DNA of 64,000 nt from Bacteroidetes bacterium 47-18 (GCA_001897155.1 MKSF01000006.1:94696-158695), one strand, 5' to 3'; numbered from the stretch's first letter, positions 6,190-37,108 are shown. Program-made: numbers and translations. The notes: generated by a model not told the origin, from the letters alone.

Positions 6190-6815
6190 TGCTATACTCC
6201 GGTCGGAATGACCTTTACTATTAATGGATTAACCCCACCGCTGTCATTTCGAGCCTAATGCAATGGAGCCGGGAAATCTCTGTTATGGTGGATTGGAATA
6301 CTCATTAGACGACCGCATTAACTTTTATGCTTCCATAGGCTCTCTTTCTCCTGCCAGGCTGAACCCGTTGAAGCCATTATAAACCACATTTCGACAAGCT
6401 CAATGTGACAGTCTCCCTTATTGTCATGCTGAGCCCGTCGAAGCATATACTGCTTCCCTTACGCTGCGCTCCGGTCGGAATGACCTTTAGGATTAACCCC
6501 GCCGCTGTCATTTCGAGCGTAATGCAATGGAGCCGAGAAATCTCTGTTATGCTGGATTGGAACACTCATTAGACGACCGCATTAACTTTTATGCTTCCAT
6601 AGGCTCTCTTTCTGCTGCCAGGCTGAGCCCGTCGAAGCCTTTTGGTTAAGCAGGTCATCGACACTTTCCGTTAGGTCCACACTTCGACAAGCTCAGTGTG
6701 ACAAGCGTGTTTTCCTCCTAAGTGTCATGCTGAGCCCGTCGAAGCCTTTTGGTTAAGCAGGTCATCAACACTTTCCGTTAGGTCCACACTTCGATAAGCT
6801 CTGTGTGACAAACAA
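6190..6815. repeat. Structured repeat array A: 2 copies of a ~175-bp composite element (left arm CGCTGCGCTCCGGTCGGAATGACC ... TGTCATTTCGAGC..AATGCAATGGAGCCG.GAAATCTC) plus several ~65-bp hairpin modules (CACATTTCGACAAGCTCAATGTGACA ... TGTCATGCTGAGCCCGTCGAAGC)
   Basis: Direct sequence comparison. 6198-6395 and 6468-6650 are >90% identical. The flanking hairpin arms are mutual reverse complements. No ORF support. Confidence 0.7.
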
Positions 6816-21507: not shown

Positions 21508-23355
21508 TTAATAACCCCTGCCATCTTTTTTCTCCACAAAGTTCATGAAAGCTTTATTGGCTACCCTGTTGCCGCCGGGAGTAGGATAGTTGCCGGTAAA
21601 GTACCAGTCACCCCTGTTATTCGGACAGGCCATATGCAGGCCCTCGATGGTCTGGTAAATGATCTCCACGTCACATTCCACTTCTTCAGGATGCAGCAGC
21701 TCGGCAATCTTCCTGCTGATCTGCTCGGCTGTAAAGTTATCGTAAAAGCGCTTCACATAGTTTTCCTGTGTCAGCGCATTATTGCCTTCCGCGGTTTTAC
21801 AGAGCTGGTACACGTCTTCCACCACCTGCAGGGAGCCGTTATCCTTATGCAGGGCCAGCGCCGCCTGGAAGGCTATAAAGTCACCCATCCGGCTCATATC
21901 GATACCATAGCAGTCCGGGTAACGGATCTGCGGCGCGGAGGAAACGATCACGATCTTCCGGGGCCTGAGACGGGCCAGCATTTTAATGATGCTTTCCCTC
22001 AGCGTTGTACCCCTTACAATAGAATCGTCTATGACCACAAGGTTATCTTCGCCATGATTTACGGTTCCATAGGTAATATCGTACACGTGCTGCACCATTT
22101 CGTCCCGCGCGGAATCTTCCGTGATGAAGGTCCGGAGCTTTACATCCTTGATGGCGACCTTATCAATCCTGACTCGGCGATGTATCAGCTCCCTGATCTC
22201 ATCGTTCGTCATCTGGTCCCTGTTCTTCAGGATACGGTCTATCTGTATGTCCTTCATATAGTCTTCCAGGCCCTTGATAAGCCCGTAGAAAGATATCTCA
22301 GCCGTATTCGGTATAAAGGATACTACTGTATGCTTAAGGTCGTAATCAATGGATTTCAGCACGCTGCCGGTAAGGTTCTTGCCCAGCCTGATACGCTCTT
22401 TATAGATATCCGCATCGCTGCCCCTGCTGAAATAGATACGTTCAAAGCTGCAGGCCAGCTTTTCACCCGGCTCCAGTATCTGCTCTATCTGTACCTGCCC
22501 GTCCGCTTTTACGATAATGGCCTGTCCCGGCTCTATCTCTTTCACATCGGAGAGTTGCAGGTTAAAGGCCGTCATGATCGCAGGGCGCTCCGAGGCTGCC
22601 ACCACGATCTCATCATCTATATAGTAATATCCGGGTCGTATACCGTTCTTATCCCGCATCACGAAGCCGTCACCATTGCCTACCAGTCCGCCGCACAGGA
22701 AACCGCCGTCAAAGCCGGAAGCGGCTTTTTTCAGCACTTCCACCATATCCGGGTTCTCAATATCCTTTGTTTCTTCCTCGCACAGGTAATAGTGCACGGT
22801 GTCTATCATAGCCCCGAGATCACTGTTACGCATGGATTCCTTAGGCTCTTCAGGCAGGCGGCTGTACAATTCATCCGTATTCACCAGGTTGAAATTACCG
22901 GCCATTGCAAGATTCCTGGCAGGGTTGATATCGGATTTGACAAAAGGATGGCAGTATTTGACGCTGTTCTTACCCTGCGTACCGTACCGCAGATGCCCCA
23001 GCATGACCTCACCCATAAATCTCAGGTATCCTTTCATCAGGCCGGGATAGTTGCGGAGGTCCGGGTACATACGTTCCAGCTCTGATACCTCTTCCTGAAC
23101 GGAGTTGAAAATTTCCTTGATGGCGCCCTGTCCCGGGATACGCAGGCGGTGCAGGAACTGATATCCCGGCTCCACGTTCAGCTTCAGGGTAGCTATACCG
23201 GCACCGTCCTGGCCCCTGTTATGCTGCTTTTCCATCAGCAGATACAGCTTATTCAATCCGTAGAATGCTGTACCATACTTGCGATGATAATAAGAAATAG
23301 GTTTTCTTAGGCGGATGAATGCGAGCCCGCATTCGTGTTTAATAGCGTCTGACAT
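21508..23355 (-). CDS. purF: Amidophosphoribosyltransferase (class II glutamine amidotransferase, long Bacteroidetes-type form)
   Basis: N-terminal ...ECGLAFIR Ntn-hydrolase Cys. GQDGAGIA motif. PRTase domain. 615 aa. Confidence 0.75.
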   Translation of the reverse strand: MSDAIKHECGLAFIRLRKPISYYHRKYGTAFYGLNKLYLLMEKQHNRGQDGAGIATLKLNVEPGYQFLHRLRIPGQGAIKEIFNSVQEEVSELERMYPDLRNYPGLMKGYLRFMGEVMLGHLRYGTQGKNSVKYCHPFVKSDINPARNLAMAGNFNLVNTDELYSRLPEEPKESMRNSDLGAMIDTVHYYLCEEETKDIENPDMVEVLKKAASGFDGGFLCGGLVGNGDGFVMRDKNGIRPGYYYIDDEIVVAASERPAIMTAFNLQLSDVKEIEPGQAIIVKADGQVQIEQILEPGEKLACSFERIYFSRGSDADIYKERIRLGKNLTGSVLKSIDYDLKHTVVSFIPNTAEISFYGLIKGLEDYMKDIQIDRILKNRDQMTNDEIRELIHRRVRIDKVAIKDVKLRTFITEDSARDEMVQHVYDITYGTVNHGEDNLVVIDDSIVRGTTLRESIIKMLARLRPRKIVIVSSAPQIRYPDCYGIDMSRMGDFIAFQAALALHKDNGSLQVVEDVYQLCKTAEGNNALTQENYVKRFYDNFTAEQISRKIAELLHPEEVECDVEIIYQTIEGLHMACPNNRGDWYFTGNYPTPGGNRVANKAFMNFVEKKDGRGY

Positions 23356-23652
23356 AATTCGGACACAAAATTAATTCAATTTCCACAATTTATGAAAAAG
23401 GAGCAGAGGCCTGTTAACTATGTATAAATAAGTTATATTTATATAATTCCCATTATACCATTTACTTATTTTTTTGCCGTCCACCCGCCCGGGTTCGGGA
23501 GCGCCGGACGGCATCCCTTACAAAGGCACATCCTGTAACGGGGAGAGGCATTATTTACAAAAAGTTATTACCGGATATAACCGTTTTTTTACCATCAGAC
23601 TGAATATAAAATCTTAACTTTACGAGTATAATCACCCTAAAAATGTAAGCTT

Positions 23653-23949
23653 ATGTCGTTAAAAGAAACATTCACCGTAACGGGCGAAAATCTGCTTAAG
23701 AAGATCAAGGACCTGATAGCAGAAGGCAATGTCCGCAAAATAGTCATTTCAGACAAATCGGGTAAAGAGATGATGAGCTTCCCGGTAACTATCGGCGTGG
23801 TCGGCGTACTGCTGGCGCCCGTTTTCGCCGCCATCGGGGCCATAGCTGCCATGGTCAGCGACTGTACGGTCACCGTTGAGAAAGAGATGCCGGAAGAGCA
23901 GCCCCGGCAGGAAACCAACGGGGAGCTACCACCGCCGCCAGCGCATTAA
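23653..23949 (+). CDS. Small hypothetical protein with one hydrophobic helix (DUF4342-like)
   Basis: 98 aa. VTIGVVGVLLAPVFAAIGAIAAMV hydrophobic segment. Pro-rich C-terminus. Confidence 0.4.
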   Translation: MSLKETFTVTGENLLKKIKDLIAEGNVRKIVISDKSGKEMMSFPVTIGVVGVLLAPVFAAIGAIAAMVSDCTVTVEKEMPEEQPRQETNGELPPPPAH

Positions 23950-24087
23950 AGCGGCCTGTCACCCCTAATAGGCCAACAATAAAGCACCGAAAAAGTACAT
24001 CACACAGATGTATCCGATAAAAAATGAGGCTATTTAAAAAGCCGTCATTCCCAGCGAAACGTAGTGCAGCCGGGAACTATTATCAGT

Positions 24088-24130
24088 AAAGCAAAATCTC
24101 ATAATCTACCGATTATGAGATTTTGCTTTG
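24088..24130. other. Perfect 18-19 bp inverted repeat (AAAGCAAAATCTCATAAT-ctaccg-ATTATGAGATTTTGCTTT), putative stem-loop/terminator 3' of the giant AAA gene
   Basis: Direct inspection. No U-run follows. Confidence 0.4.
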
Positions 24131-24210
24131 CAAGAGTTTCTCCACGCCGGAATGCCGTAATGATACTTTTTGGCCCCCCCATTTTATACAATAATTTACC
24201 TGACCGTACC

Positions 24211-27200
24211 CTATTCAATATTCTTCAAAGCGTCCACCAGGCCTTTAAAGTTTTCATTGATGCCGGATAGCTGCACCAGGACCTGGGCGGTCTTATCATC
24301 ACCGCCCAGCCCGGCAAACTGGTTGTTCTTCCTGAATGTGGTAACAATATGCTTATAGCGCTCCTGCTCTTCGGGAGTGGCTATATGCATAATATGCCTG
24401 AGCTTGAGCAGATTGGCTTCCGCATCGGTGGTCAGCGTCTGCGCTTCGGCTTCATAGCTGGCAATGATCAGGTTCAAAAGCTCCTGCTCATTCATCAGGG
24501 GCACTATTTTCACCACCATCCTGTTCATGCTCCTGTACGAGCCCTGCAGCTTGAAGGCCGGCTCCGTACGGAACGCGTCATTCATCCCTGCGCTGGCTAT
24601 ATATAAATCGTTGACCTGCAAAACCACTTTCCTGACATACATTACATTTCGCAATACAACTATGGCATCGTCCACCTCCGCCCCGGTATAGGCAGCTTCC
24701 AGCTCCGGACGCAAATCCTCGTGCCGCTCCACATAGTCCACAAGCCTGTAAAAGTCTTTCATGCTCTTATGCCCTATCACCTGCAAATAACGGTTTTCGT
24801 TCATGGCATTTTCTACCAGGCTCAGGTCAAACAGGTGCCTGCTCTCCCCTGCCACATCACCCAGGTTATACACATCGGAACGGTTGGCCAGCATATCGGG
24901 GATCTTAAAGAGACTGCCGCTTTCGGTATAAGGATTGCCTGCCATCACCACACAGAAGCGTTTGCCCCGCAGGTCGTAGGTTTTGCTTACGCCTTCAAAG
25001 ATGCCGTCTATCTTACGCTGCCCGTCCGCCAGCGATATGAACTGCTGCAGGAATTCCGGGCTGCAATGCTGGATATCGTCCACATACAGCATCACGTTAT
25101 CAGCCATTTCAAAAGCAAGGTTCAGCTTCTCCAGCTCGACCCTGGCCCCCGAAGTTGTTGCTTCGGCAGGATCAATGCTGGTGATACGATGCCCGATAGT
25201 GGGACCGTTTATTTTTACAAAATGCAATCCCATCGTAGCGGACAGGTACTCCATCAGGGTGGTTTTACCATAACCCGGCGGCGAGATCAGCAGCAGCATC
25301 CCCATTCTCGCGGTACGCTTATCATCACCTACCGTACCCAATTGTTTGGCAAGGTTGGCGCCAATCATCGGGAAATATACTTCATTGATAAGCCTATTCC
25401 GCATAAAGGAGCTAAGCACCTTGGGCTGCATTTCCCTTATCTTCAGACGCTGCTCATAAGCGGCTACCAGGCTGCGTTTGGTAGCCTGGAAATCCTCGTA
25501 CAAAGGCACTGTTACCTGCCGGAAATGTGTCAGCTCTTCCATAAACTCATGATAACGGATGATATAGCCCTGCTCCGTTATGGTGGCATGATTGCCTTTC
25601 AGCCCGGTCAGCACCGTACTTTCGGCAGCAATATGCTCTTTGTAGCTGTCAGCCCCGAACAATACCAGGCAGGTAGCCTCATCTATATATGCCAGGTACG
25701 GCTCCGCGTTTTCCAGGGTCATGACATAGGCTTCCACCCAGTCCTGTATAATATAGAAACGCTCTATCAGGCTGTAAGATTCATTTTGAATATCCTGACG
25801 GAATACCTCTTCCTGGTGCTGCTGCTGCAGATGATGAATAAAATCTTTCTTTAGCTGCAATGCGGCGCTGCTGCAGGTAAAATAAGCCGGATCTTTCAGC
25901 TCATCCATCAGGTATGCTGCCATAGCTTCTACGGTAGCAGGAGGCAAATGATTATGTACCAAGGTAATATCCTGCACCAATACCCTGAAGGCCTGCGTAT
26001 CCTGGTACGCTGCTTGAAACAGCCGCCTGATCTTGTGAGCAGACTGTATCAGTTGTTCCAGCTTTTGCAACTGCTGCCCGGTCAATTGCTTCCAGAACAG
26101 TTGCGCCTGTACCCGGACAGCAACCGGGACCCTGAGAATACCCAGGCTGTCATCCAGCTTTATCAATGCGTCCGTAATAGCCACGGCATCCGCATTGTGC
26201 ACGCCTTTCACATAACCGCCGGCATAGTCCTGGTCTATCAGGCTGTCAATATATGCCGCAATATTCAGATCTCTTTTTTTGATATACTCCTGAAATGCCC
26301 GGAATGCCAGATAAGCACCTCTATATACTGCCGGGTTCTCCGAAATATAATCCTGGTCCCAGACGGCAATATGTTTCCGGAAAATACTCTCATCAACGGG
26401 CTGGTAAAAATTGGTGCCCATCAGATGATACATCAGGCGGTCGTTATGCTTTACGATCGTCAGTGCCAGCTCCTGCTTATTGACCGCAAATTTATACGGC
26501 CCCAGGGCAATGATATGATGCCCGTCCACAAACAGCTCATTTTTATCCTGCAGGGCCCTGATGGTATTTTCGCGGGCCAGCTTCAGGCTGTTCATCAGGT
26601 TTTCCGCCTTACCCACATCGCCCAGATCCTGCAGTTCCTGAGATAAGCTCCTGACCTTCTCTATCATCAGGTCACCGGCAAAAAAGCTGTATATCTCCTC
26701 ATTGGTGCCCAGCGTCAATGCTTTGCTCTCTATATTTTTCAGCACACGCAGGCCGATCTGCTCCAGGTTGCCGGTACGCTTGTTGATCTGCGCTACCAGC
26801 ATTTCCTTTTTGCCGTTGAATGCTTTTATAACCTCGTCCCGCTTGTCGGCAATCTTCAGGATAAAATCATCAAAGTCGGCAAACTTACTTTCCAGCTCCT
26901 CGATATGCACGCTGATCTTAGTGTAGTAGCTGTCGCATTTTTCTACCGAATCGGACAGATCCAGGAAGTTGACGATACTTTGCTCCAGTAAGGTGAGCTG
27001 CGCATGGAATTCCCCTACCGCCTCACCAGATCTCAGGCTGTTGATCCTGCGTGTCAGCGATGCCCTTACCTCATTCAAAGATGCGAACAGCACCGAAATA
27101 TTTTCAATGATCTTTGTGGTCTGCGTGGTATCTTCTATCTTAAGGCTGTTCAGTATATCTATCAGCAGCTCCAGTTGCCCGGCTATATCCATGCAGGCTT

Positions 27201-29040
27201 TTTCAATAGCCTGTGCATCTATCACTTTGGCAACACGCTCTATCGCCTGTCGCTGCTCGGCAATGTGCGCTTCATAAGGCTGCAAAGCATTGTCCTGCAA
27301 TAAGAACGTTACCGTTTCCTGCGACAACTGCCTATTGAATGCCTGTACCTGGTCCAGCATTTCACTGACTGCATCCTGGTCAATATACCGGACCTGCTGC
27401 AATTCAATAATACCACCCTGCGTAATACGAACCGTATTCAGTTGCTGCACCAGCTCATCCACCGTAGCATATTCTGCGTTCCGTATCTCCTGGTCCAGCG
27501 CCGCCACCTGAGCGCGTTTTTGTACCAGCTGCTCCACGGCAGACTGACGCTGTGCCTGCACTTTGGCAAATTCATCAATAGCCGTTTCGGCAATGGTCCC
27601 GATCTGCTTCAATGGTTCAGCAATACCATAAGTATCGCCGTTATTGATCCAGAAATAGCTGTCCAGAATATCTTTGGACAGCCTGGCAATATCCTCGTAC
27701 AGACCTTCATAGCTGTCTTCTTTCTTCAGCAACTGCAGGATCTCATACCCCTCCGACATCGCGCTGACGATATCTTTATTACCTATCTTGTACAATACAT
27801 TATCTTTCATCGCCTCATTTTCCACCAATGCGGCGGTATAAGGCGTCTGCCAGATCTGTACCTGGTGATGACGCACCGCTTCCTTTTCCGAACGGAAATA
27901 GATCAGCCTGCCATCTTTGAATATGGTAAAGCCATTGCAGATAATAGGCGTATTGACCTGCTGCTGTATCACATTGTACGACATCAGCACATAAGTATTG
28001 CTGTGCTTCTGGTAATATACATACAGGTAGTCCTCGCCATTCGGAGCCGCAACAGTACGCATATATTCCAGGTGGTCCATGCCGTTCTCAAAGAGCTTAT
28101 ACTCGCCATTCTGCAAATAGTATCCATTGGAGAATATCACTCCCTGCTGGTCGGGCAACAGGATACCGCTGTCCAGCAGGCTCGGGATATTATGCACCTC
28201 CCTGGTCCGAACATTGTATATAAACGCCCTGAAATCCTCCTGGTAAGGCTTTATTCTGACAGCAATGAGATTGCCCAGGTCCGCATAGTAATACTGCGCA
28301 TCATCCAGTTGCTGATCTTTGTTGGCAACCGGCTCAGAATAAATGCCCAGCCCCGTATCCGTATTGTCTTCGATCTTAAAGGTAATATCACCGCCGATAG
28401 CTTCTATATACACCTTATCCAGGATAGAGATATGCGGATGCAGGCCCAGCCTCCTGTCCTCCAGGGAGGTTCTTGTGAAATCAAAGCTGTACTGCTTTGC
28501 CTGCCTGACCTCATGAATGCTCCTGTCATCTATATATTTTAGCTGCTTACCATCTATATACCATTTAAACGCCTTCCTGTCCTCTACATTTTTAGAGCTC
28601 TGGAAGATCATATAGAGATAATGCTCCGTCCTGTAGAATTTGGAAAAGAAAGACTCCCGGTAATACCTGTACAGGTTTTTGAAATCCGTTACGAATTGCG
28701 CATCCGTTATCAGGTCAAGACTTACAGGCTCAAAATGATTGTCCGCAAACCTGTAGATGCTGAACACATCTCCCAGCTCTATTTCTTCGCGCAGTCCGAA
28801 GTGGACATTATAACCGAAAATACAGTATTCACCAAAGGCAATGATACCGCGGGCCACACCGTTATGTTCGGTAGTGATACGCTGATTGGCTATCAATGCA
28901 AACTGTTCCGTATTGAAAATTTCTTTCCTGCCTTCATTCAGCGCTGCCAGGCGCTCGCTTAAAATCACACTTTGCTCCTGTAACCTGTTGCGTATGATCT
29001 CATACGTCCCCGTATCTAAAGTAACTTTATTTTGTGGCAT
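24211..29040 (-). CDS. Giant (1609 aa) uncharacterised protein: N-terminal beta-rich domain, central ~500-aa coiled coil, C-terminal-third AAA+ ATPase of the MoxR/dynein-like (AAA_5) type
   Basis: Walker A GMLLLISPPGYGKTTL. Walker B NVMLYVDDIQ. Sensor-1/Arg-finger region CVVMAGNPYTESGSLFKIPDMLANRSDVY is comparable to ATQNP...P.ALLDRF of MoxR/midasin AAA_5. Long heptad-rich Q/E/L/K segment. Single uninterrupted ORF. Confidence 0.7.
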   Translation of the reverse strand: MPQNKVTLDTGTYEIIRNRLQEQSVILSERLAALNEGRKEIFNTEQFALIANQRITTEHNGVARGIIAFGEYCIFGYNVHFGLREEIELGDVFSIYRFADNHFEPVSLDLITDAQFVTDFKNLYRYYRESFFSKFYRTEHYLYMIFQSSKNVEDRKAFKWYIDGKQLKYIDDRSIHEVRQAKQYSFDFTRTSLEDRRLGLHPHISILDKVYIEAIGGDITFKIEDNTDTGLGIYSEPVANKDQQLDDAQYYYADLGNLIAVRIKPYQEDFRAFIYNVRTREVHNIPSLLDSGILLPDQQGVIFSNGYYLQNGEYKLFENGMDHLEYMRTVAAPNGEDYLYVYYQKHSNTYVLMSYNVIQQQVNTPIICNGFTIFKDGRLIYFRSEKEAVRHHQVQIWQTPYTAALVENEAMKDNVLYKIGNKDIVSAMSEGYEILQLLKKEDSYEGLYEDIARLSKDILDSYFWINNGDTYGIAEPLKQIGTIAETAIDEFAKVQAQRQSAVEQLVQKRAQVAALDQEIRNAEYATVDELVQQLNTVRITQGGIIELQQVRYIDQDAVSEMLDQVQAFNRQLSQETVTFLLQDNALQPYEAHIAEQRQAIERVAKVIDAQAIEKACMDIAGQLELLIDILNSLKIEDTTQTTKIIENISVLFASLNEVRASLTRRINSLRSGEAVGEFHAQLTLLEQSIVNFLDLSDSVEKCDSYYTKISVHIEELESKFADFDDFILKIADKRDEVIKAFNGKKEMLVAQINKRTGNLEQIGLRVLKNIESKALTLGTNEEIYSFFAGDLMIEKVRSLSQELQDLGDVGKAENLMNSLKLARENTIRALQDKNELFVDGHHIIALGPYKFAVNKQELALTIVKHNDRLMYHLMGTNFYQPVDESIFRKHIAVWDQDYISENPAVYRGAYLAFRAFQEYIKKRDLNIAAYIDSLIDQDYAGGYVKGVHNADAVAITDALIKLDDSLGILRVPVAVRVQAQLFWKQLTGQQLQKLEQLIQSAHKIRRLFQAAYQDTQAFRVLVQDITLVHNHLPPATVEAMAAYLMDELKDPAYFTCSSAALQLKKDFIHHLQQQHQEEVFRQDIQNESYSLIERFYIIQDWVEAYVMTLENAEPYLAYIDEATCLVLFGADSYKEHIAAESTVLTGLKGNHATITEQGYIIRYHEFMEELTHFRQVTVPLYEDFQATKRSLVAAYEQRLKIREMQPKVLSSFMRNRLINEVYFPMIGANLAKQLGTVGDDKRTARMGMLLLISPPGYGKTTLMEYLSATMGLHFVKINGPTIGHRITSIDPAEATTSGARVELEKLNLAFEMADNVMLYVDDIQHCSPEFLQQFISLADGQRKIDGIFEGVSKTYDLRGKRFCVVMAGNPYTESGSLFKIPDMLANRSDVYNLGDVAGESRHLFDLSLVENAMNENRYLQVIGHKSMKDFYRLVDYVERHEDLRPELEAAYTGAEVDDAIVVLRNVMYVRKVVLQVNDLYIASAGMNDAFRTEPAFKLQGSYRSMNRMVVKIVPLMNEQELLNLIIASYEAEAQTLTTDAEANLLKLRHIMHIATPEEQERYKHIVTTFRKNNQFAGLGGDDKTAQVLVQLSGINENFKGLVDALKNIE

Positions 29041-29084
29041 AAGCTGTTGTTTGTTTTTTTACTTTCCAAAAACCGTCTTAATAT

Positions 29085-30935
29085 TCAAGATAACACTTCT
29101 TTTTATAGGATTTAGGAGATTTCTCCATTGCGCTACGCTACAGTCGAAATGACAAGTAATACATCTGGCGTAAGAGCGAATCAGTAACAGACCACCCTAT
29201 GTCATTTCGAGCGAAGTGAAACGGAGTCGGGAAATCTCCTTGCATTTCCAACCAAAAGCTGAAACTTCTGCCTCTACCTAGTCCAGAGACTTTCCATTGC
29301 GCTACGCTACAGTCGAAATGACAAACGGCATGGCTACAGTAAGAAGCGAACCAATAGCACACCTCTTATGTCATTTCGAGCGGAGTGAAACGGAGTCGAG
29401 AAATCTCCTTGCATTTCCAACCAAAAGCTGAAACTTCTGCCTCTACCTAGTCCAGAGACTTTCCATTGCGCTACGCTACAGTCGAAATGACAAGTAGCAT
29501 GTTTAGAGTGAGAAGCGAACCAACAGCCCCCTTATGTCATTTCGAGCGAAGTGAAACGGAGTCGAGAAATCTCCTACATTTCCAACCAAAAGCTGCATCA
29601 CCTGAGCAAGCTAAATACATCATTCATCACTTCATCATTAAAGAATTTCCATTCACTATTCACATTATCAATTAATGTATTCTTCTTGGCTCTGCTCCAT
29701 TTTTTTAGCTGTTTTTCCCTCTCAATAGCAAGTGATATATTTTCAAATACCTCATAATACACCAGCAAAACACAATTGTATCTATCTGAAAAACTATTTA
29801 CAATTAAATGCTGCTCATGTTCATACAATCTTCGTTTCAGATCATTCGTTACCCCTATATACAGAACAGTTTTTGCCTTATTTGTCAATATATATAGAAA
29901 GTATGATTGCATGGTCGAGTTTTTTAATTTACAACCTACCTCTCCTGAATGGTCTTTGAGATTTCTCCATTCCGCTACGCTACAGTCGAAATGACAAGTA
30001 GCATGTTTAGAGTGAGAAGCGAACCAACAGCACACCTCTTATGTCATTTCGAGCGGAGTGAAACGGGGTCGAGAAATCTCCTTGCATTTCCGACCAAACA
30101 CTGACCTTCTGATCTTACCTGGTTTAGAGATTGCCCCATTTCGCTATACTACAGTCGAAATGACAGAGTAACACCTGGGGCAAGAACGAATCAGCAGCAG
30201 ACTCACCCTATGTCATTTCGAGCGGAGTGAAACGGAGTCGAGAAATCTCCTACATTTCCAACCAAAAGCTGAAACTTCTGCCCTATATAGTCCAGAGATT
30301 TCTTCATTCCACTACGCTGCAGTCGAAATGACAGAGTAGCACCTGGGGTAAGAACGAATCCTCACCCTATGTCATTTCGAGCGAAGTGAAACGGAGTCGA
30401 GAAATCACCTTGCATTTCCAACCAAAAGCTGAAACTTCTGCCTCTATCTAGTCCAGAGATTTCTCCATTCCGCTACGCTACAGTCGAAATGACAAGTAGC
30501 ATGTTTAGAGTGAGAAGCGAACCAATAGCCCCCTTATGTCATTTCGAGCGAAGTGAAACGGAGTCGAGAAATCTCTTTGTATTTCCAACCAAACACTGCA
30601 CTTCTAACCTACATAATCTAGAGATTCCTCCATTTCGCTACGCTACAGTCGAAATGACAAGTAGCATGTTTAGAGTGAGAAGCGAACCAATAGTAGCCCC
30701 CTTATGTCATTTCGAGCAAAGTGAAACGGAGTCGAGAAATCTCCTTGCATTTCCAACCAAAAGCTGAAACTTCTGCCTCTATCTAGTCCAGAGATTTCTC
30801 CATTAAGCTACGCTGCAGTCGAAATGACAAATAGTACATTCTGGTGTAAGAACAAATCAGTAGCAGACTCACCCTATGTCATTTCGAGCAAAGTGAAACG
30901 GAGCTGAGAAGTTTATTATTACCTGTGCTTTAAGC
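29085..30935. repeat. Structured repeat array D: about 9 tandem ~168-bp composite units (GGAGATTTCTCCATTGCGCTACGCTACAGTCGAAATGACAAG - ~40 nt variable loop - TTATGTCATTTCGAGCGAAGTGAAACGGAGTCGAGAAATCTCC - linker TTGCATTTCCAACCAAAAGCTGAAACTTCTGCCTCTACCTAGTCCAGAGAC), interrupted by a GIY-YIG gene
   Basis: Core TGTCATTTCGAGC recurs at ~29208, 29369, 29535, 30040, 30210, 30370, 30535, 30705 and 30880. The unit ends (GGAGATTTCTC / GAGAAATCTCC; CAGTCGAAATGACA / TGTCATTTCGAG) are reverse complements, giving a long imperfect hairpin. Confidence 0.8.
29598..29912 (-). CDS. GIY-YIG nuclease family protein (small, ~104 aa)
   Basis: MQSYFLYILTNKAKTVLYIGVTNDLKRRLYEHEQ...REKQLKKWSRAKK has the GIY-YIG core. 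The longer ORF (to 30035) reads through a repeat unit, so the start is set at the Met preceding the domain. AT-rich. Inserted at a repeat-unit boundary. Confidence 0.7.
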   Translation of the reverse strand: MQSYFLYILTNKAKTVLYIGVTNDLKRRLYEHEQHLIVNSFSDRYNCVLLVYYEVFENISLAIEREKQLKKWSRAKKNTLIDNVNSEWKFFNDEVMNDVFSLLR

Positions 30936-30979
30936 ATGCTCTGCTAAAATGATGATCTTCCAATTAAGAGCGCACACCT

Positions 30980-33022
30980 CTACCCCAGCTTCCTGTTTGA
31001 CCAGCCCAGGTTGCTGACCATATTCATCAGGTTCATAATGAACGGACGGTCTTCGTCTGAGCTTTGCTGCTGCATCTTTAAGAGGATACCGGATATGGTC
31101 AGGTTCTTCAGATCGTTGGTGCTGACATTATATTTCTCAGCAAAATCCCTGATCTTATCCATCAGATCGCCGTTATTGGTACCATCTCCTATCAATGCCT
31201 GCTTGATATGCGTAGCATGCTCGCTTTCATTGATGAGCCTGTCAAATCCTTTAGCATTGGAAATCTGGTTCACAATATTCTGGAAGAACATACTTTCACC
31301 ACCTACAATATCTATTTTCGCTGTCTTCATCGCTTCACCCAGCACCTCAGCCTGCGCATCTGCAATATCTTTCTGGATGCGTATCTGCGCTAATGCGATG
31401 TCCTTGTCCTTCTGTACCAGTATCTTGAACTCTTCGTGCTCTTTACCCACACCATCCAGCTTTTTCATAGCTTCCGCTTTCTCTTCGATACCTTTGGCTT
31501 CCGCCAGCGCTTTCTCTCTTAAGATATCGGCTTCCATCATACCCTCTTTGCGTTTGGCGTCTGCCATTTTCTCTACAATAGTAGCCTCTACTATACCCTG
31601 GCGCTCTTCTGCAGCCGCTTTTGCCAGCATCACCTCTGCCTCGGACAGACCGATGGTCGCTTCTTCACGGGCCTGGGCCTCTGCCAGTATCTTACGGGCT
31701 TCCGCCTGCTTGGCTGCCGCTTCTTTACGGGCCTCAGCATCTATCAGCATCTGCCTGGCTTTCTCTTCTGCTGCTCTTTTCTCAGCTTCCGCCGCTTTCA
31801 CGGTATGGATCAGCTTTTCTTCCGCTGCCCTTGACGCTTCGGTAATACCTACCGTTTTGCTTCTTTCCACTTCACGGAATGCTTCTACGTCCTTAATGCT
31901 TTGCTGCTCTTCCACCACGCCTTTTTCCAGCTTCACACGCTCCCTGATGACGTCCTGTATGTTCTTACGCTCTACCTCTACCGTTTTCTCTTTCTCTATC
32001 TGTGCCAGGGTCACGATCTTTTCACGCTCCGTTACTTCCAGCATCCTGTCTTTTTCCACACGCTCCGTTTCCACGGCATCTGTCCTGAGCTTACTCTTCT
32101 CCGCTATGATGATCTGGCGCAGCTTGTTCTCTTGCTGGATAGCCAGCTGCTCTTCCGTTTTGATCTTTACGGTCTGGGCTTTGAGCCTTTCCTCTTCCCG
32201 CACTTTTACGATCTCTGCTTCTTCACGCGCCTTGATATTATCAATTTCACGCTTTTGCTTTTCTTCTTTCTCTGCCATCTGGCGCTCCAGCTCCAGGATA
32301 GCTTCCCGTGCTTCCACATTCTGCTTTTTGATCACTTTCTCTTCTTCCCTGCGGATCAGGTTCGCTTTGATATTTTGTGCCGCGGTCAGCTCCGTGATTT
32401 TCTTGATACCTTCCGAATCCAGGATATTTTCCGGGCTCAGGTAGCGCAGCTCCGTCTGTTCCAGGTAGTCAATGGCACAGTCATCCAGGATATAGCCGTT
32501 CAGGTCCGTACCGATCACGTTCAATATCTCGTCCCGGAATTCACGACGCGCCTCGTACAGCTCCGTGAAGTCGAATTTCTTACCGGCCGTTTTCAGCGCC
32601 TCGGAGAATTTAGCTTCAAACAGGTGCGTCAGCGTAGAGACATCACTGGCCCGCTCACAACCTATCACCTGCGCCACATTCAGCACATCGTCCACATTTT
32701 TATTGACACGCACAAAGAACGCCACTTTGATATCCGCACGGATATTATCCCTACAGATCAGGCCGTCATGCTCCATGCGGTCTATCTGCAGCTTTTTGAC
32801 GGAGATATCCATGATCTCCATCTTATGAAGAATGGGAATGACATACATCCCTTTGTTAAAGGCCACCTTGCTGCCACCCACACCGGTCCTTACAATGGCC
32901 TTGCCCTGCGGTATCTTCTTATAAAAAGTAGCGAAGGCAAATAAAACAATAAGCAATATAAACACCACACCGCCAATCGTCATCAGGGTTAAACCGCCCA
33001 GGTTATCTAAAAATGCTCCCAT
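30980..33022 (-). CDS. Flotillin family protein (SPFH/band-7 domain plus long E/K/A-rich coiled coil), YqiK-like
   Basis: N-terminal TM helix, then SPFH domain (GKAIVRTGVGGSKV...VIPILHKMEIMDISVKKLQ...), then ~350 aa EA-rich coiled coil. 680 aa. Confidence 0.85.
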   Translation of the reverse strand: MGAFLDNLGGLTLMTIGGVVFILLIVLFAFATFYKKIPQGKAIVRTGVGGSKVAFNKGMYVIPILHKMEIMDISVKKLQIDRMEHDGLICRDNIRADIKVAFFVRVNKNVDDVLNVAQVIGCERASDVSTLTHLFEAKFSEALKTAGKKFDFTELYEARREFRDEILNVIGTDLNGYILDDCAIDYLEQTELRYLSPENILDSEGIKKITELTAAQNIKANLIRREEEKVIKKQNVEAREAILELERQMAEKEEKQKREIDNIKAREEAEIVKVREEERLKAQTVKIKTEEQLAIQQENKLRQIIIAEKSKLRTDAVETERVEKDRMLEVTEREKIVTLAQIEKEKTVEVERKNIQDVIRERVKLEKGVVEEQQSIKDVEAFREVERSKTVGITEASRAAEEKLIHTVKAAEAEKRAAEEKARQMLIDAEARKEAAAKQAEARKILAEAQAREEATIGLSEAEVMLAKAAAEERQGIVEATIVEKMADAKRKEGMMEADILREKALAEAKGIEEKAEAMKKLDGVGKEHEEFKILVQKDKDIALAQIRIQKDIADAQAEVLGEAMKTAKIDIVGGESMFFQNIVNQISNAKGFDRLINESEHATHIKQALIGDGTNNGDLMDKIRDFAEKYNVSTNDLKNLTISGILLKMQQQSSDEDRPFIMNLMNMVSNLGWSNRKLG

Positions 33023-33067
33023 AAGTTAAAAAGATTGTTTAAAATGGTTAAATGATATTTTAGTATT

Positions 33068-33727
33068 TCAGTCATTCAATACGTTATGGATATTGATATC
33101 CGGCTCCACCAGGTAATATCTTCCGCTATCCGCATCGCTCATCAGCGTGACTTCCGCGCCGTACGGGATAGCCCCGCCGCTTTTGCTTTTCACGAGCACC
33201 CTGATCACATCATTGAGGATGACCACTTCCGCATATCCCAGCTTATCTCCCGATATGGCCGATTTCATCCGGGCGGTCCTGCCGATGAGCTCATGCTGCT
33301 CTTCTCCGTTATATCCCATTGATCTGTATATCCTGATTAAAGGCCGTGTTGCCAGCCGGGTTAAAAAATAAGCGAGGATGAAGACAGGTATCAGTATCAA
33401 TCCTGATTTCCAGCCCCAGCTCCCTATATTCCAGATCATGGAGGAAGCCAGGGTAAACATCCATGCAATGAACTTAAAAGTGCTCAATACTACCATTACA
33501 GGCACTTTTCCCACGTTGATAAACGCCAGCGCCCTGGAGAAGAAAGAGGGCCCTTCCACTCCTCCCTGGGCATCCACATCCACTCCTGCCTCCAGGTCCA
33601 TATCCAGGTCACCCAGGAAATCTCCCGAAATAAAGGTCAGCAGCCAGTAAATGGCAGACAGGCTTACCAGCACTGTCATGATCGCATTCGGCAGCGGATG
33701 AAAAAAGTAATTTAAGATGTCAGCCAT
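33068..33727 (-). CDS. YqiJ-like / NfeD-type inner-membrane protein (DUF1449-like), flotillin partner
   Basis: Multi-TM N-terminal part plus a C-terminal soluble beta-rich segment (KLGYAEVVILNDVIRVLVKSKSG..GAEVTLMSD). Immediately upstream of flotillin, as in E. coli yqiJK. Confidence 0.55.
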   Translation of the reverse strand: MADILNYFFHPLPNAIMTVLVSLSAIYWLLTFISGDFLGDLDMDLEAGVDVDAQGGVEGPSFFSRALAFINVGKVPVMVVLSTFKFIAWMFTLASSMIWNIGSWGWKSGLILIPVFILAYFLTRLATRPLIRIYRSMGYNGEEQHELIGRTARMKSAISGDKLGYAEVVILNDVIRVLVKSKSGGAIPYGAEVTLMSDADSGRYYLVEPDINIHNVLND

Positions 33728-33748
33728 AGTATTGATAATTTTAAGATA

Positions 33749-34447
33749 TTACATGCCCAGCTTTTGCTTTAAGGCCGCCAGCTCTTTGTCCACCGACAGG
33801 CTATCATCTTTCAATATCCTGTCGATCTCGCTTTTGCTGTCCTGCTTTTCATGGGCGATCTCGCCATATGCCCTAGCCAGGGCTTCCTGGTCATCGGCTT
33901 TCTCTTTCATCCGTTCCAGCATCACGATAGTACTGTCACTGTCAATCTGGGCTATTTGCTTATTGACCTGCTGGGTGGCGGCGCTTACCTTCACCCGTGC
34001 GCGCAATGTCTTAAGCTCTTTTTCCCATTTGGCGAGGTTCTCCTGCAGCACGCGGATATTCTTCTGCATCTCTTCCACGGTATGCTCATGCATCACCGCC
34101 TGCTGCTCCAGGTCCAGGGCATCCTCGGCATATTGGCGCTTTAACGATAAGGCTTCCCGGGCGAGCTGCTCTGCCTTTCCTGCTTCCAGTTCCCTGTGCT
34201 GTGCCTTTTGCAGTATCAGCACCGCCTTTTCACCGTATGCGTCAGACTGCTTGATGCACTGCTCCTGCTCGTTGCGGGTCCTGAGCGCCAGGGCCTTTAT
34301 TTTTGCATACGCTTCGGTCGCATTGGCGAGGTCGTCCCTTAATTCGCGGAGACCCTGTTCCGTCATCCTGACCGGATCTTCCATCCGTTCGACAGCGGCA
34401 TGTATCTCCGCCTGTCCTATCCTGAAAAGCCTTTTAAAGATATTCAT
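33749..34447 (-). CDS. pspA: PspA/IM30 (Vipp1) family protein, ESCRT-III-like
   Basis: MNIFKRLFRIGQAEIHAAVERMEDPVRMTEQGLRELRDDL... is collinear with E. coli PspA ([40 protein letters not shown]). All-helical. 232 aa. Confidence 0.85.
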   Translation of the reverse strand: MNIFKRLFRIGQAEIHAAVERMEDPVRMTEQGLRELRDDLANATEAYAKIKALALRTRNEQEQCIKQSDAYGEKAVLILQKAQHRELEAGKAEQLAREALSLKRQYAEDALDLEQQAVMHEHTVEEMQKNIRVLQENLAKWEKELKTLRARVKVSAATQQVNKQIAQIDSDSTIVMLERMKEKADDQEALARAYGEIAHEKQDSKSEIDRILKDDSLSVDKELAALKQKLGM

Positions 34448-34459
34448 AACAATCAGTTT

Positions 34460-34858
34460 TTATAGTTTAGAAAATTCAATTATTTTATCAGCATATTCGT
34501 GCAAAAGCAGCCCCAGGGCGTTTAAAGCACTTTCAAATTCATTATAATCCAGGTTCTCCAGTTGCATGGTATAGCGGTACAATACCTTGTCACCTTCCTC
34601 GTTGATAACGAAGGCCCCGTGCAGCATATCCCGGTTCTTCTGCAGCAGCGCCTTAAATACGGCCACATTATCACTGGTAAAAGCGAACAGGTAGTATTCC
34701 ATGATCAGCACCGGAGGCACCACGCCGAGTATCAGGTGCCGGATGCCGTCCTGCTCGTTCTCAATTTTGATGATGCCGGATGCCTCATCCCTATACAGCA
34801 CTTTGTATTCTGCCTGCTTTACAAAATCCAGGATCTTATTGATATACATTACTCTCAT
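34460..34858 (-). CDS. YbjN-domain protein (T3SS-chaperone-like fold, putative sensory transduction regulator)
   Basis: 132 aa. Sequence pattern typical of the YbjN family. First gene of the pspA/flotillin operon. Confidence 0.55.
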   Translation of the reverse strand: MRVMYINKILDFVKQAEYKVLYRDEASGIIKIENEQDGIRHLILGVVPPVLIMEYYLFAFTSDNVAVFKALLQKNRDMLHGAFVINEEGDKVLYRYTMQLENLDYNEFESALNALGLLLHEYADKIIEFSKL

Positions 34859-34924
34859 CTACTGTATATTTTTTGATTTAAAAATAATCTTTATCTTTAC
34901 GCTATCAAAATTAGCAAAATAAAA

Positions 34925-34953
34925 TTAAAATGCAAATAATTTTAGCATTTTAA
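34925..34953. promoter_or_regulatory. Palindromic candidate operator TTAAAATGC-N11-GCATTTTAA in the divergent XRE-regulator / ybjN-pspA promoter region
   Basis: 9-bp perfect inverted arms around an AT-rich centre, 20 bp upstream of the regulator ATG. Confidence 0.4.
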
Positions 34954-34972
34954 TTTGAAAAAATTCCACGGC

Positions 34973-35650
34973 ATGACCAAGATAGGCAGTAACATCAAGA
35001 AAATAAGGAAAACAAAGGGACTGACGCAGCAATCCTTTGCAGACCTGTTTGATATAAGCAGGGGCAATATATCCTCCTACGAGGAGGACCGGGCAGAGCC
35101 CAGGATCGAAACGATCATTAAAATTGCTAATTATTTTAGCATACCATTAGAAAGCCTGCTAACAAAAGAATTGACGGTTAATGAGATCCTGCAGTATAAT
35201 ACGGACAGGCTGCTGGAAGAGGAGCATAAATTGTCCACGCTGAAGATAAAAGTGGTGCCTTATATCAATGAGGATATATTGGTGAAGGGCCTTCACGGTG
35301 AATTAAGCTTTGAAGATTTTGATGCCTATCCTCTTATTAAAATACCGGAAACCAACCCGTTCAGGGTGATCGCGCTGAGCTTCAACAGCAATATCCCTCA
35401 TCACCAGTTGTTCGAAAAATACACGTCCAACGACATACTTTTCTTTGTGCATGTAAGCACTCATAATATTCACCTGGTCAACAAAAAAGCCGGCCTCCTG
35501 CTGGCTCCCCACCAGCTCACACTGGGGCAGTTCCAGCAGGAGGACGGCATTATACAGCTCACGCTGAACCAGCAGCAGCAGGAAACCGTTGATCTTGCAA
35601 AGTCCAACCGCTACTGGAAATTATTCGCCACATACCAGCATACCAAATAA
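34973..35650 (+). CDS. XRE-family helix-turn-helix transcriptional regulator with C-terminal uncharacterised domain
   Basis: IRKTKGLTQQSFADLFDISRGNISSYEEDRAEPRIETIIKIANYFSIPLESLL (HTH_3/XRE). The ORF track starts at a TTG at 34955. The ATG at 34973 is preferred. Confidence 0.65.
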   Translation: MTKIGSNIKKIRKTKGLTQQSFADLFDISRGNISSYEEDRAEPRIETIIKIANYFSIPLESLLTKELTVNEILQYNTDRLLEEEHKLSTLKIKVVPYINEDILVKGLHGELSFEDFDAYPLIKIPETNPFRVIALSFNSNIPHHQLFEKYTSNDILFFVHVSTHNIHLVNKKAGLLLAPHQLTLGQFQQEDGIIQLTLNQQQQETVDLAKSNRYWKLFATYQHTK

Positions 35651-35657
35651 AGCATAA

Positions 35658-35707
35658 GGGCGCTTAAAGGATCAGCCCGGTTCTCCTTTAAGCACCCTGT
35701 ATTTTTA
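35658..35707. terminator. Bidirectional terminator between convergent genes (13-bp stem GGGCGCTTAAAGGA/TCCTTTAAGCACCC, then TGTATTTTTA)
   Basis: Inverted repeat with one mismatch followed by a T-rich tract. Confidence 0.5.
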
Positions 35708-37108
35708 GCCCAGCCCGATCGTTTCATGGAGGGCAGGTATCAGCACATCCCTGAACCCTTTCCTGATCAGCCTGGTCTTGAAGGCTTCCTGTACATCATA
35801 TTCGCCATGGACCAGGATCAGCTTTTCCACCAGGGACGGGTCCTGGCAGGCCAGCCACTGGCTGATCTCCCCGTAATCCCCATGGGCACTAAGGCTGTCA
35901 ATTTCAGCGATCTCCGCCTGCACTTCATGATCCACACCGAAAATACCCACCTTCTGCGGCCTGTTCTTCAGCCGGCCGCCCAGGCTCTGCGGCTCACAAT
36001 AGCCCACCAGCAGTATGGTATTCCTGGCCGACGAAATATTATTGGCTATATGATGCTTTACCCTGCCCGCTTCCGCCATGCCCGAGGCGGAGATGATCAC
36101 CATAGGCCGCTTATCGCTGTTGAGCGATTTGGAGGTCTCCACATCATCTACAAGGACCAGGCCCCTGAACATAAAAGGATCATCATCCTTTTCCAGCAGC
36201 CTCCGTACGTCATCATTAAATAATTCCGGGAATCTTTTCACCGTCTGCGTCGCCTCTACCGACAGCGGGCTGTCCACCACATACAGGAGATCGGGCAGGC
36301 GGTTTTCCTGCTCCAGCTGGTTAAGGGCATACAGCAATTCCTGTGTCCTGCCCACGCTGAAGGAAGGGATGATCAGCTTGCCTTTCTTATGCAGGCAGGT
36401 GTGCTCAATATGCTGCAGCAGCATCTCCGCGGGAGGCTGTGTCAGCGGGTGCAGCGTATCGCCATAGGTAGATTCCAGGATCAGCACTTCCGCCTGGGGG
36501 AAGGGCTGCGGTGATTTCAGCAGGGGATCTCCATACCTGCCCACATCGCCGCTGAAAGTAAGGCGCGTGGTCTTGCCGTTTTCCTTGATCTTCAGGTGGA
36601 CAGCCGCGCTGCCGATGATATGACCCACATCCGTGTACATCAGCTCCACCTGGTCATCCAGCTTTATCCATTCACCATAGGGCATTATTTCCAGTAGCGC
36701 TACCGCACGGTGCACATCCTCTATCGTGTACAGGGGCTTAGCCAGCGGCTTACCCTGCTCCTGCCTGATCCTGTTCACATATCTTATATCCGCTTCCTGT
36801 ATATTGGCGCTGTCCCTGAGCAGTATCGCTCCAAGGGCCTCTGTTGCGGGCGTACAGTACACCTTCCCGTTAAAGCCTTCCTTCACCAGCTTGGGCAGCA
36901 GCCCTATATGGTCAATATGCGCGTGAGATAAAATGACATAGTCCACTTCCGACGGCTCAAACCCGAACTCACTATTCAGCGCTATCGTCTCTTTTCCCAG
37001 TCCCTGGAACATACCGCAGTCCAGCAGGATCTTTTTATCGGGATGAATATGTAATAAATGCTTGGAACCGGTTACCGTTCTTGCCGCTCCATGAAAAGAT
37101 ATCTTCAT
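35705..37108 (-). CDS. MBL-fold metallo-hydrolase with beta-CASP/RNA-specificity domain (RNase J / CPSF-like)
   Basis: MKISFHGAARTVTGSKHLL..LDCGMFQG. HAHIDH motif (ILSHAHIDHIG). C-terminal beta-CASP. The 567-aa ORF extension upstream lacks homology and is hydrophobic junk, so the start is set at 37108. Confidence 0.7.
   Translation of the reverse strand: MKISFHGAARTVTGSKHLLHIHPDKKILLDCGMFQGLGKETIALNSEFGFEPSEVDYVILSHAHIDHIGLLPKLVKEGFNGKVYCTPATEALGAILLRDSANIQEADIRYVNRIRQEQGKPLAKPLYTIEDVHRAVALLEIMPYGEWIKLDDQVELMYTDVGHIIGSAAVHLKIKENGKTTRLTFSGDVGRYGDPLLKSPQPFPQAEVLILESTYGDTLHPLTQPPAEMLLQHIEHTCLHKKGKLIIPSFSVGRTQELLYALNQLEQENRLPDLLYVVDSPLSVEATQTVKRFPELFNDDVRRLLEKDDDPFMFRGLVLVDDVETSKSLNSDKRPMVIISASGMAEAGRVKHHIANNISSARNTILLVGYCEPQSLGGRLKNRPQKVGIFGVDHEVQAEIAEIDSLSAHGDYGEISQWLACQDPSLVEKLILVHGEYDVQEAFKTRLIRKGFRDVLIPALHETIGLG

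Follow-up and report, generated by a model that had tools for sequence, protein, structure and literature searches.

A further copy of the CesT/Tir-PspA-YqiJ-flotillin operon with a giant DUF3686 AAA+ protein in Bacteroidetes bacterium 47-18

Operons in which a PspA-family protein, a flotillin-type SPFH protein and a large ATPase are encoded together have been described by comparative genomics and, in part, studied by experiment. Ravi et al. (mSystems 2024, preprint 2020; PMC11237479) reported a CesT/Tir-PspA gene dyad with three further genes, one of them encoding a YqiJ/YuaF protein with three transmembrane (TM) segments, and took their prototype operon from Dokdonia donghaensis. They noted that shortened flotillin-YqiJ(-ATPase) operons are commoner, the ATPase being present "in some cases", described the N-terminal region of the ATPase as "beta-propeller repeats", and inferred ESCRT-like, ATP-dependent membrane dynamics for the system (PMC11237479). 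The experimental work concerns the bacABCDEF operon of Pseudomonas aeruginosa, in which reverse-transcription PCR gave products at every junction, including the one between bacD and PA14_16190 (flotillin to ATPase), and in which a bacA mutant showed BacB-BacF increased 6- to 13-fold and a sigma-54 site was proposed (PMC10948618); PA14_16180 is the SPFH protein PaFlo3 and PA14_16160 a short NfeD (PMC13086221). Here we analyse a locus of this kind in a 64,000-nucleotide stretch from Bacteroidetes bacterium 47-18 (GCA_001897155.1 MKSF01000006.1:94696-158695; the whole stretch is called the window below), where the module under study lies at 24211-34858 and is accompanied by a divergent regulator gene at 34955-35650 (+).

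Five open reading frames (ORFs), all on the (-) strand, make up the module, at 34858-34460, 34447-33749, 33727-33068, 33022-30980 and 29040-24211; these are exactly the coordinates given in a preliminary description of the locus. Their products, of 132, 232, 219, 680 and 1609 amino acids (aa) in operon order, are encoded with intergenic spacing of 12, 21, 45 and then 1939 bp. Gene 1 (34460-34858) encodes a CesT/Tir-like (YbjN-like) protein of chaperone fold (CesT_Tir_1 1.6e-42, YbjN 6e-06) and is followed after 12 bp by a pspA gene of the yjfJ type (33749-34447), whose product is a soluble PspA/IM30 protein of the bacterial ESCRT-III superfamily (PspA_IM30 2.1e-37, aa 2-229). Next come a YqiJ/YuaF-type short NfeD-like membrane protein (33068-33727; YqiJ_N 1.4e-05, hydropathy scan) with about three TM segments, a flotillin-type SPFH protein (30980-33022; Band_7 4e-11 on aa 1-253 alone) with one, and a soluble giant ATPase (24211-29040) in which Pfam recognises DUF3686, DUF7902, AAA and AAA_5. 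The large ATPase stands last, with the propeller, coiled-coil and AAA+ regions of the operon of Ravi et al., the propeller fold being weakly supported. The adjacent divergent gene (34955-35650) encodes a helix-turn-helix (HTH) regulator of XRE/Cro type (HTH_3 1.8e-13, HTH_19 7.6e-13), in whose C-terminal half a protease-like S24 domain was not detected.

The window operon and that of Ravi et al. therefore share the same five genes, their order and orientation, the divergent cHTH regulator, the phylum and the functional interpretation. There is no essential difference between the two, and what the window adds is a strain-variable insertion of palindromic repeats with a GIY-YIG gene at the flotillin-ATPase junction. 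It is a further copy of a system already defined by comparative genomics and partly characterised in Pseudomonas; the view of the preliminary description that the combination matched no named system has to be given up, since both the operon and the same ESCRT-like inference are found in Ravi et al. (PMC11237479). The identity of the genes and their membership in one operon we regard as nearly certain. Our reading of the module is that it represents the Chitinophagaceae (Edaphocola-like) copy of a conserved six-gene membrane-stress module in which flotillin and NfeD are the primary clients of the ATPase, and to this we would give a probability of roughly 0.6.

Membership of the ATPase gene was examined through its neighbours. 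We aligned 18 homologues of the giant protein and scanned one genome per species, which yielded 80 Bacteroidota loci, and a tblastn search of a plasmid collection added seven more (Hymenobacter, Pseudomonas pQBR103, Streptomyces, Deinococcus, Proteus, Vibrio and Nonomuraea). Synteny was counted at the 74 loci, from four phyla, that had at least 4.8 kb of sequence upstream of the giant gene, which was searched with the window proteins. A flotillin homologue on the same strand lies immediately upstream of the ATPase gene at 73 of the 74 loci, with 35%-99% identity to the window flotillin and a median flotillin-to-ATPase gap of 146 bp. The order CesT-PspA-YqiJ-flotillin is complete at 63/74, a lower bound because divergent PspAs, that of P. 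aeruginosa among them, escape a tblastn search made with the window PspA, and a divergent HTH homologue adjoins the CesT gene at 61/74. The giant gene is thus syntenic with pspA and flotillin where the repeat array is absent; the preliminary description had placed it in the module and had named as a refutation orthologues that are never adjacent to these genes in the absence of the array, and the counts are the opposite of that outcome.

The same comparison separates the ATPase's partners from one another. A flotillin-ATPase core is also present on Pseudomonas pQBR103 and in Streptomyces, Deinococcus, Nonomuraea, Proteus and Vibrio, and among these plasmid-collection loci an NfeD/YqiJ-like gene ahead of flotillin has Pfam support, itself weak (NfeD, 0.0024), only in Deinococcus. 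The linked set in Streptomyces and Deinococcus is a small protein, flotillin and ATPase only, and for Myroides odoratus, Dysgonomonas capnocytophagoides and D. macrotermitis the only homologues that tblastn detects before the ATPase gene are those of YqiJ and flotillin. ORFs further upstream are unrelated by Pfam: Deinococcus has a transposase and a GGDEF protein there, Myroides a formate-tetrahydrofolate ligase and D. capnocytophagoides an acyltransferase. As tblastn with the window PspA and CesT fails on divergent families, absences outside the Bacteroidota were rechecked by annotation or Pfam where possible; the small upstream ORFs of Proteus, Vibrio and Nonomuraea have no Pfam match, which does not establish that PspA is absent there. 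In pQBR103, YjfI and PspA genes are found ~7 kb upstream of the core, with polyamine-related genes between. The ATPase tracks flotillin/NfeD more closely than PspA, and because it stays with flotillin/NfeD where CesT and PspA are missing, flotillin rather than PspA is the better candidate for its client.

Two further observations concern the plasmid-borne copies. At the pQBR103 locus (L081; 84437-105350) one co-oriented cluster takes in the YjfI-PspA dyad, a block of polyamine/glutathionylspermidine-synthase genes and the flotillin-ATPase core, and copies of the module occur on several large plasmids or megaplasmids, namely P. fluorescens pQBR103, a Hymenobacter plasmid, Streptomyces linear plasmids and Deinococcus plasmids (L081-L084).

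The pQBR103 protein, used as query in a further homology search, led to the core protein of P. aeruginosa (P0123; 1,746 aa, 3,222 member sequences). Its locus reads DUF2170, PspA_IM30, a 213-aa protein, a 688-aa protein, DUF3686-DUF7902-AAA, PLDc_2, YaeQ and RecJ, and corresponds to PA3732-PA3727, the bacABCDEF operon. The window flotillin aligns with BacD/PaFlo3 at 45% identity over 626 aa (1.5e-150), the giant protein with BacE/PA3728 at 37% over 1,638 aa, and the YqiJ-like protein with its P. aeruginosa counterpart at 31% (E 1e-3); judged by these similarities, the NfeD-SPFH-DUF3686 ATPase core is orthologous to bacC-bacD-bacE. Both operons follow the order of chaperone-fold protein, PspA, short NfeD, SPFH protein and DUF3686-AAA+ ATPase, and the flotillin-ATPase gap of bac is 149 bp. 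They differ in the first gene (DUF2170/YjfI in bac, CesT_Tir_1 in the window), in PspA (that of bac being too divergent for tblastn with the window PspA), in the sixth gene of bac (PLDc_2, BacF), and in regulation, with a proposed sigma-54 promoter in bac and a divergent HTH regulator in the window. Co-transcription of the scaffold genes with the ATPase gene, which the preliminary description had proposed as a check, has been demonstrated by RT-PCR across the flotillin-ATPase junction of the P. aeruginosa counterpart (PMC10948618).

The giant protein itself matches DUF3686 (PF12458) at 2.9e-160 over aa 27-463 (27652-28962, -), DUF7902 (PF25472) at 4.2e-25 over aa 584-667 (27040-27291, -), AAA at 1.5e-06 and AAA_5 at 9.3e-06 (aa 1249-1372), the AAA+ core extending over aa ~1240-1400 (24841-25323, -). 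No TM segment was found by hydropathy scan. More than 3,476 homologues are known, under the NCBI family name "DNA repair ATPase", with full-length members at 33%-43% identity in Actinomycetota, Deinococcota and Gammaproteobacteria. AlphaFold2 models were made for aa 1-690 (mean predicted local distance difference test, pLDDT, 62) and aa 830-1609 (pLDDT 71.5). The first, of low confidence, is beta-rich at ~aa 60-380 and continues in long helices at ~aa 420-690, within which DUF7902 falls; its top Foldseek matches in the PDB are nearly all beta-propellers, none of them significant (E >= 5e-3), and the DUF3686 domain is probably a beta-propeller. In the second, a small beta unit comes first, followed by an all-alpha domain (~aa 885-1130), then a long helix and one AAA+ core. 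A second, degenerate AAA domain suggested by a CbbQ_C match (0.0022, aa 990-1044) was rejected, as this region is all-helical in the model. The ~500 aa of coiled coil announced in the preliminary description are not established; what the models contain is the helices at ~aa 420-690 and the all-alpha domain.

By eye, the AAA+ core carries a Walker A motif SPPGYGKT, a Walker B motif LYVDDIQH, a sensor-1 GNPYTE and a candidate arginine finger DMLANR, with a predicted beta-hairpin ahead of sensor-1 (a pre-sensor-1 hairpin). LLxRF is the MoxR-/MCM-type motif at the position where the giant protein has DMLANR. All four motifs are invariant in the alignment across Bacteroidota, Pseudomonadota, Actinomycetota and Deinococcota, and this invariance argues for a working ATPase, so that the giant protein is probably active. 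Its place among AAA+ proteins is less distinct. PF00004 (AAA; 29.1 bits) and AAA_5 (26.1 bits, cut-off 22) both pass with similar scores; the aa 830-1609 model draws generic AAA+ structures only (E ~2e-4; MCM, ClpA, FtsH, p97, NorQ and RuvB); and PDB sequence and profile searches return only a Walker A stretch of 36-68 residues, against AFG2, Rix7 and p97, the profile matches being confined to 36 residues around Walker A. By the PDB sequence and profile searches the giant protein has no solved structural relative. The Foldseek comparison that had been recommended for both ends of the protein thus gave a propeller-like N-terminus at non-significant scores and an AAA+ fold matched in general terms at the C-terminus, and the proposed "MoxR/dynein-type" AAA+ domain is weakly supported, AAA_5 lying above its cut-off while PF00004 does equally well and the fold matches do not discriminate.

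Detection of the flotillin depended on how it was searched. The full-length 680-aa protein had no match in Pfam, NCBIfam or PDB sequence searches, whereas aa 1-253 scanned alone matched Band_7/SPFH (4e-11; 43.7 bits, the cut-off being 23.6); the C-terminal 219 aa scanned alone had no match. We attribute the failure of the whole protein to the biased composition of its long, helical Glu/Lys/Ala-rich region, which lies between the Band-7/SPFH domain and a C-terminal domain; a single N-terminal TM segment (aa 5-38; hydropathy scan) precedes both. Because Band_7 is recovered only from the N-terminal 253 aa, automated annotation would label such a gene "hypothetical". The flotillin genes of Hymenobacter and Deinococcus bear that label.

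Among the smaller proteins, PspA has no TM segment by hydropathy scan and also matches TIGR02977 in NCBIfam (7.3e-16, below its cut-off). In the YqiJ-like protein the TM segments are followed by a non-hydrophobic C-terminal region in which Pfam did not detect the NfeD C-terminal domain; its Hymenobacter counterpart is annotated DUF1449. The regulator, which corresponds to the "cHTH+Protease" of the Dokdonia prototype (PMC11237479), has no Pfam match in its C-terminal ~150 aa, a region that could be a non-catalytic sensor domain. Its ORF as listed starts at TTG, and the true start may instead be an in-frame Met six codons downstream. A Hymenobacter homologue of the regulator is annotated as "LexA family".

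Several described systems resemble parts of this operon. According to work cited in PMC13086221, SPFH proteins that have NfeD partners build large cages attached to the membrane, and PspA and Vipp1 are ESCRT-III-superfamily polymers (PMC7619361). An SPFH protein that ties PspA to the membrane has experimental precedent in Bacillus subtilis, where YdjI/SamI of the pspA-ydjGHI/samGHI operon does so (PMC8581546 and a 2026 preprint). The window further shares the NfeD/YqiJ-flotillin gene pair with Escherichia coli yqiJK and B. subtilis yuaFG, its Band-7/SPFH gene standing beside an NfeD-family gene at a spacing of 45 bp. To our knowledge none of the yqiJK, yuaFG and pspA-ydjGHI/samGHI operons has been described as containing an ATPase. 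The pairs HflK/C-FtsH and prohibitin-m-AAA do join an SPFH scaffold to a dedicated AAA+ protein; the window ATPase differs from theirs in being soluble and free of any protease domain recognised by Pfam, and in having a putative association with its scaffold. With MoxR-type AAA+ proteins that act with a VWA partner (RavA-ViaA, NorQ-NorD, CbbQ-CbbO) the giant protein has in common the AAA_5 match above cut-off, the GNPY...LANR motifs and hairpin (by eye), and NorQ among its fold matches. It is, however, ~5 times larger, with unrelated N-terminal domains and an equally good PF00004 score; in the fold search MoxR has no lead over MCM, Clp or p97; and Pfam finds no VWA domain among the operon proteins scanned. 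Components of the classical Psp system are also missing from the neighbourhood, where Pfam and NCBIfam give no PspF, PspB or PspC family match among the ORFs.

Taken with these precedents, the locus is best read as a stress-induced membrane scaffold of SPFH/NfeD and PspA served by a soluble AAA+ remodeller, and the module would function in membrane remodelling or repair. Since many lineages do without PspA and CesT, we take flotillin and NfeD as the primary client. A mechanism can be sketched, which we put forward tentatively, as one that falls somewhat short of even odds. Envelope stress would cause the HTH regulator to release the operon; flotillin and the NfeD-like protein would come together on the inner membrane as an SPFH cage or microdomain; the CesT-like chaperone would hold or deliver PspA, which would polymerise on damaged membrane at the flotillin platform; and the AAA+ domains would probably assemble into an ATPase ring, whose propeller-tipped helical arms would bind the scaffold while ATP hydrolysis remodels, disassembles or recycles it. 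In its most general form, which has been published as a hypothesis, this would make the DUF3686 AAA+ protein the missing ATP-driven disassembly or remodelling machine for SPFH/flotillin cages, and for PspA/ESCRT-III polymers where these are present, docking through its propeller-tipped helical arms as a non-homologous counterpart of Vps4; that generalisation strikes us as doubtful, although possible.

Several points weigh against the reading of the module as a flotillin/NfeD scaffold with its own remodeller. Contact of the ATPase with flotillin or PspA is purely inferred, and its substrate is a proposal. The preference of the ATPase for flotillin over PspA is measured against an undercount of PspA genes. 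The word "beta-propeller" draws on weak fold matches and a published assignment, as the N-terminal model is of low confidence. Assignment to an AAA+ clade fails because the fold matches are generic, the PF00004 and AAA_5 scores similar and the profile matches short. Walker B has DD in place of the usual DE, so that hydrolysis could be slow or regulatory. Finally, co-transcription of the window ATPase gene over 1.9 kb of hairpins is a prediction.

An alternative assignment of roles would make the ATPase a functional Vps4 analogue specific for PspA, which disassembles PspA polymers while flotillin and NfeD provide a recruitment platform only. As in ESCRT-III with Vps4/CdvC, an ESCRT-III-superfamily polymer protein (PspA) is encoded beside an AAA+ ATPase, and PspA and the ATPase share one operon at 63/74 loci. 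A Vps4-like partner for the ESCRT-III superfamily, of which PspA is a member, is considered missing in bacteria (PMC7619361), and the same analogy was drawn by Ravi et al. (PMC11237479). A logic of assembly and disassembly analogous to that of ESCRT-III/Vps4 would be plausible here, and yet the ATPase does not look the part: Pfam finds neither MIT nor Vps4_C in it at E <= 0.01, its N-terminus is different, a probable propeller with a long helical arm, and its similarity to classical AAA proteins in the PDB is limited to 36 residues around Walker A. Its AAA+ core moreover combines a GNPY sensor-1 with a predicted pre-sensor-1 hairpin, and classical-clade AAA proteins such as Vps4 are not known to have either. 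The ATPase is also kept with flotillin/NfeD where PspA and CesT are absent. By these features the giant ATPase is not Vps4-like, and the Vps4 analogy of the preliminary description finds no support in its domains; a PspA-specific Vps4 analogue seems to us unlikely.

We consider it more improbable still that the module is a conflict system, that is, an anti-phage membrane system of abortive-infection style in which the giant ATPase is sensor or effector, aided in Proteobacteria by a PLD-family protein. Phage infection induces PA3728-PA3732 together (PMC12041424), copies are carried on plasmids and megaplasmids (pQBR103, Hymenobacter, Streptomyces linear, Deinococcus), and in P. aeruginosa a PLDc_2 gene follows the ATPase gene. 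On the other hand, no component matches a defence-system model in PADLOC, where the best scores are sub-threshold P-loop and coiled-coil matches (mad8 17 bits, JetC 12 bits), and across the Bacteroidota the module is a stable syntenic chromosomal locus and not a variable island. Classical psp genes, too, are induced by phage or secretins and are nevertheless not known as defence systems. The window has no PLD gene: in a ~97%-identical strain, DUF4342 and a 615-aa protein are what is called downstream of the giant gene, and neither contains a PLD domain.

The remaining question specific to this genome is whether the ATPase gene is still coupled to its operon, given what has been inserted in front of it. 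The preliminary description had noted a 1.9-kb repeat array between operon and giant gene; the array is real, and a gene inside it had been missed. Nine palindromic repeat units of ~168 bp lie at the flotillin-ATPase junction (29116-30910), outside the conserved operon, with tandem units at 29116-29595 and 29958-30910 by Tandem Repeats Finder (TRF) and nine copies in the gap, at 76%-100% identity, in a blastn search with one unit. Between the two blocks is a gene for a GIY-YIG nuclease-family protein of 104 aa (29598-29912, -; GIY-YIG 1.8e-17; ORF re-read from ATG). One repeat unit is an imperfect palindrome of ~120 nt that folds into a long hairpin (-35.2 kcal/mol, z -2.39). The window contains 13 copies of its core motif, CGCTCGAAATGACA, where 0.03 would be expected; all are in one orientation, with nine in the junction gap and the others at 6242-6519 and 15293-15567. 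A GIY-YIG paralogue (14858-14607, -; the two GIY-YIG proteins are 36% identical) lies near the 15293-15567 cluster, so that two of the three repeat clusters are at, or a few hundred bp from, small GIY-YIG genes. An Rfam search over 23300-35800 gave no match at E <= 0.1. The palindromes, a dispersed family of ~120-170 bp, suggest a REP-like (repetitive extragenic palindromic) element, possibly mobilised by, or co-mobile with, a GIY-YIG nuclease.

Close relatives differ at this junction, from which it follows that the array is a recent, variable insertion. Strain GCA_040394105.1 (L089; ~97% nucleotide identity) has the same six genes with five repeat units in a ~930-bp gap; in an Edaphocola metagenome-assembled genome (MAG; L001) the gap measures 768 bp and is filled with related palindromes in another mix; and in the next relative (L002, 73% identity) it is a plain 129 bp. 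The GIY-YIG gene is absent from the flotillin-ATPase gap in both L089 and L001. Repeat copy numbers are to be read with the caution that MAG assemblies can collapse tandem repeats. Kilobase insertions (1.2-2.9 kb) are seen at the same junction elsewhere in the Bacteroidota (L020, L046, L078, L080, L067, L025, L042 and L033).

The junction has a character of its own without such insertions. We folded the junctions of 50 Bacteroidota loci with ordinary gaps, using mononucleotide shuffles and 50 coding controls. They fold unusually well, with a median z of -2.5 and z < -2 in 34/50 (8/50 controls), and perfect stems of at least 8 bp are present in 15/50 (2/50 controls). Across junctions L002-L080 (~40-330 bp upstream of the giant gene) the sequence is not conserved, the structure is usually strong, and perfect stems of 8-13 bp are frequent. 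The Bacteroidetes -7 promoter motif TAnnTTTG occurs in 2/50 of the orthologous gaps, no enrichment over a background of 5.7%, and the window gap lacks it. We infer from the folding that an intercistronic stem-loop is normally present here and reduces expression of the ATPase in relation to the scaffold proteins; by attenuation or through RNA stability, it may set the ratio of scaffold to ATPase. Under this model, palindromic elements would have piled up at a permissive stem-loop junction, and the array would most likely modulate read-through into the ATPase gene and not abolish it.

The insertion might instead have uncoupled the ATPase gene, leaving it silent, independently transcribed or strongly attenuated, and the module without a stoichiometric ATPase. 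A gap of 1939 bp against a median of 146 bp, with nine strong hairpins and an extra gene in it, invites that thought, to which we attach a low probability. The ATPase ORF is intact at 1,609 codons and 99% identical to homologue P0001, its catalytic motifs are all in place, the close strains with five units or another repeat fill keep the gene intact, and gaps of 0.4-2.9 kb are tolerated at ~15 other loci. No intrinsic terminator was found on the coding strand of the gap, in a sigma-70 promoter and terminator scan whose consensus excludes Bacteroidetes signals and which is therefore uninformative for a Bacteroidetes genome.

That the giant protein is a true DNA-repair ATPase, beside membrane genes by accident, is very improbable: its NCBI name, the Pfam description of DUF3686 as "ATPase involved in DNA repair", a weak RuvB P-loop match and the LexA-family annotation of the Hymenobacter regulator point that way, while the RuvB matches cover ~45 residues at the P-loop and score 19 bits against a cut-off of 282, flotillin linkage at 73/74 loci in four phyla is not incidental, and our literature searches returned no mention of DUF3686 and no pairing of "DNA repair ATPase" with flotillin. 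The name is without support in gene context, domains or literature; both descriptions look like propagated mis-annotation, plausibly derived from coiled-coil similarity to proteins of the SbcC type.

Outside the module, downstream of the giant gene, a small DUF4342 ORF is found on the opposite strand (23653-23949, +), and 21508-23355 (-) encodes a glutamine amidotransferase of 615 aa that is PurF-like (TIGR01134 5.4e-36, below its cut-off) and homologous to the 615-aa protein of the ~97%-identical strain. These two genes are common only to the closest strains.

For the system as a whole this window adds little; it is one more copy, and its local peculiarity is the strain-variable palindromic-repeat/GIY-YIG insertion. 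The comparisons made around it refine the earlier accounts in three respects, in that the ATPase tracks flotillin/NfeD over PspA, the name "DNA repair ATPase" is unsupported, and the junction usually has a stem-loop. The operon couples scaffolds of both PspA/Vipp1 and flotillin type to one conserved and probably active AAA+ protein with thousands of homologues in at least four phyla, and the P. aeruginosa bac operon affects biofilm formation and responds to phage infection. A 2025 review has noted that a Vps4 counterpart appears to be absent from bacteria (PMC7619361). The operon is an obvious place to ask how such scaffolds are dismantled or recycled. Whether its ATPase is a remodeller of flotillin scaffolds, of ESCRT-III scaffolds or of both is a question that is attractive independent of this window.

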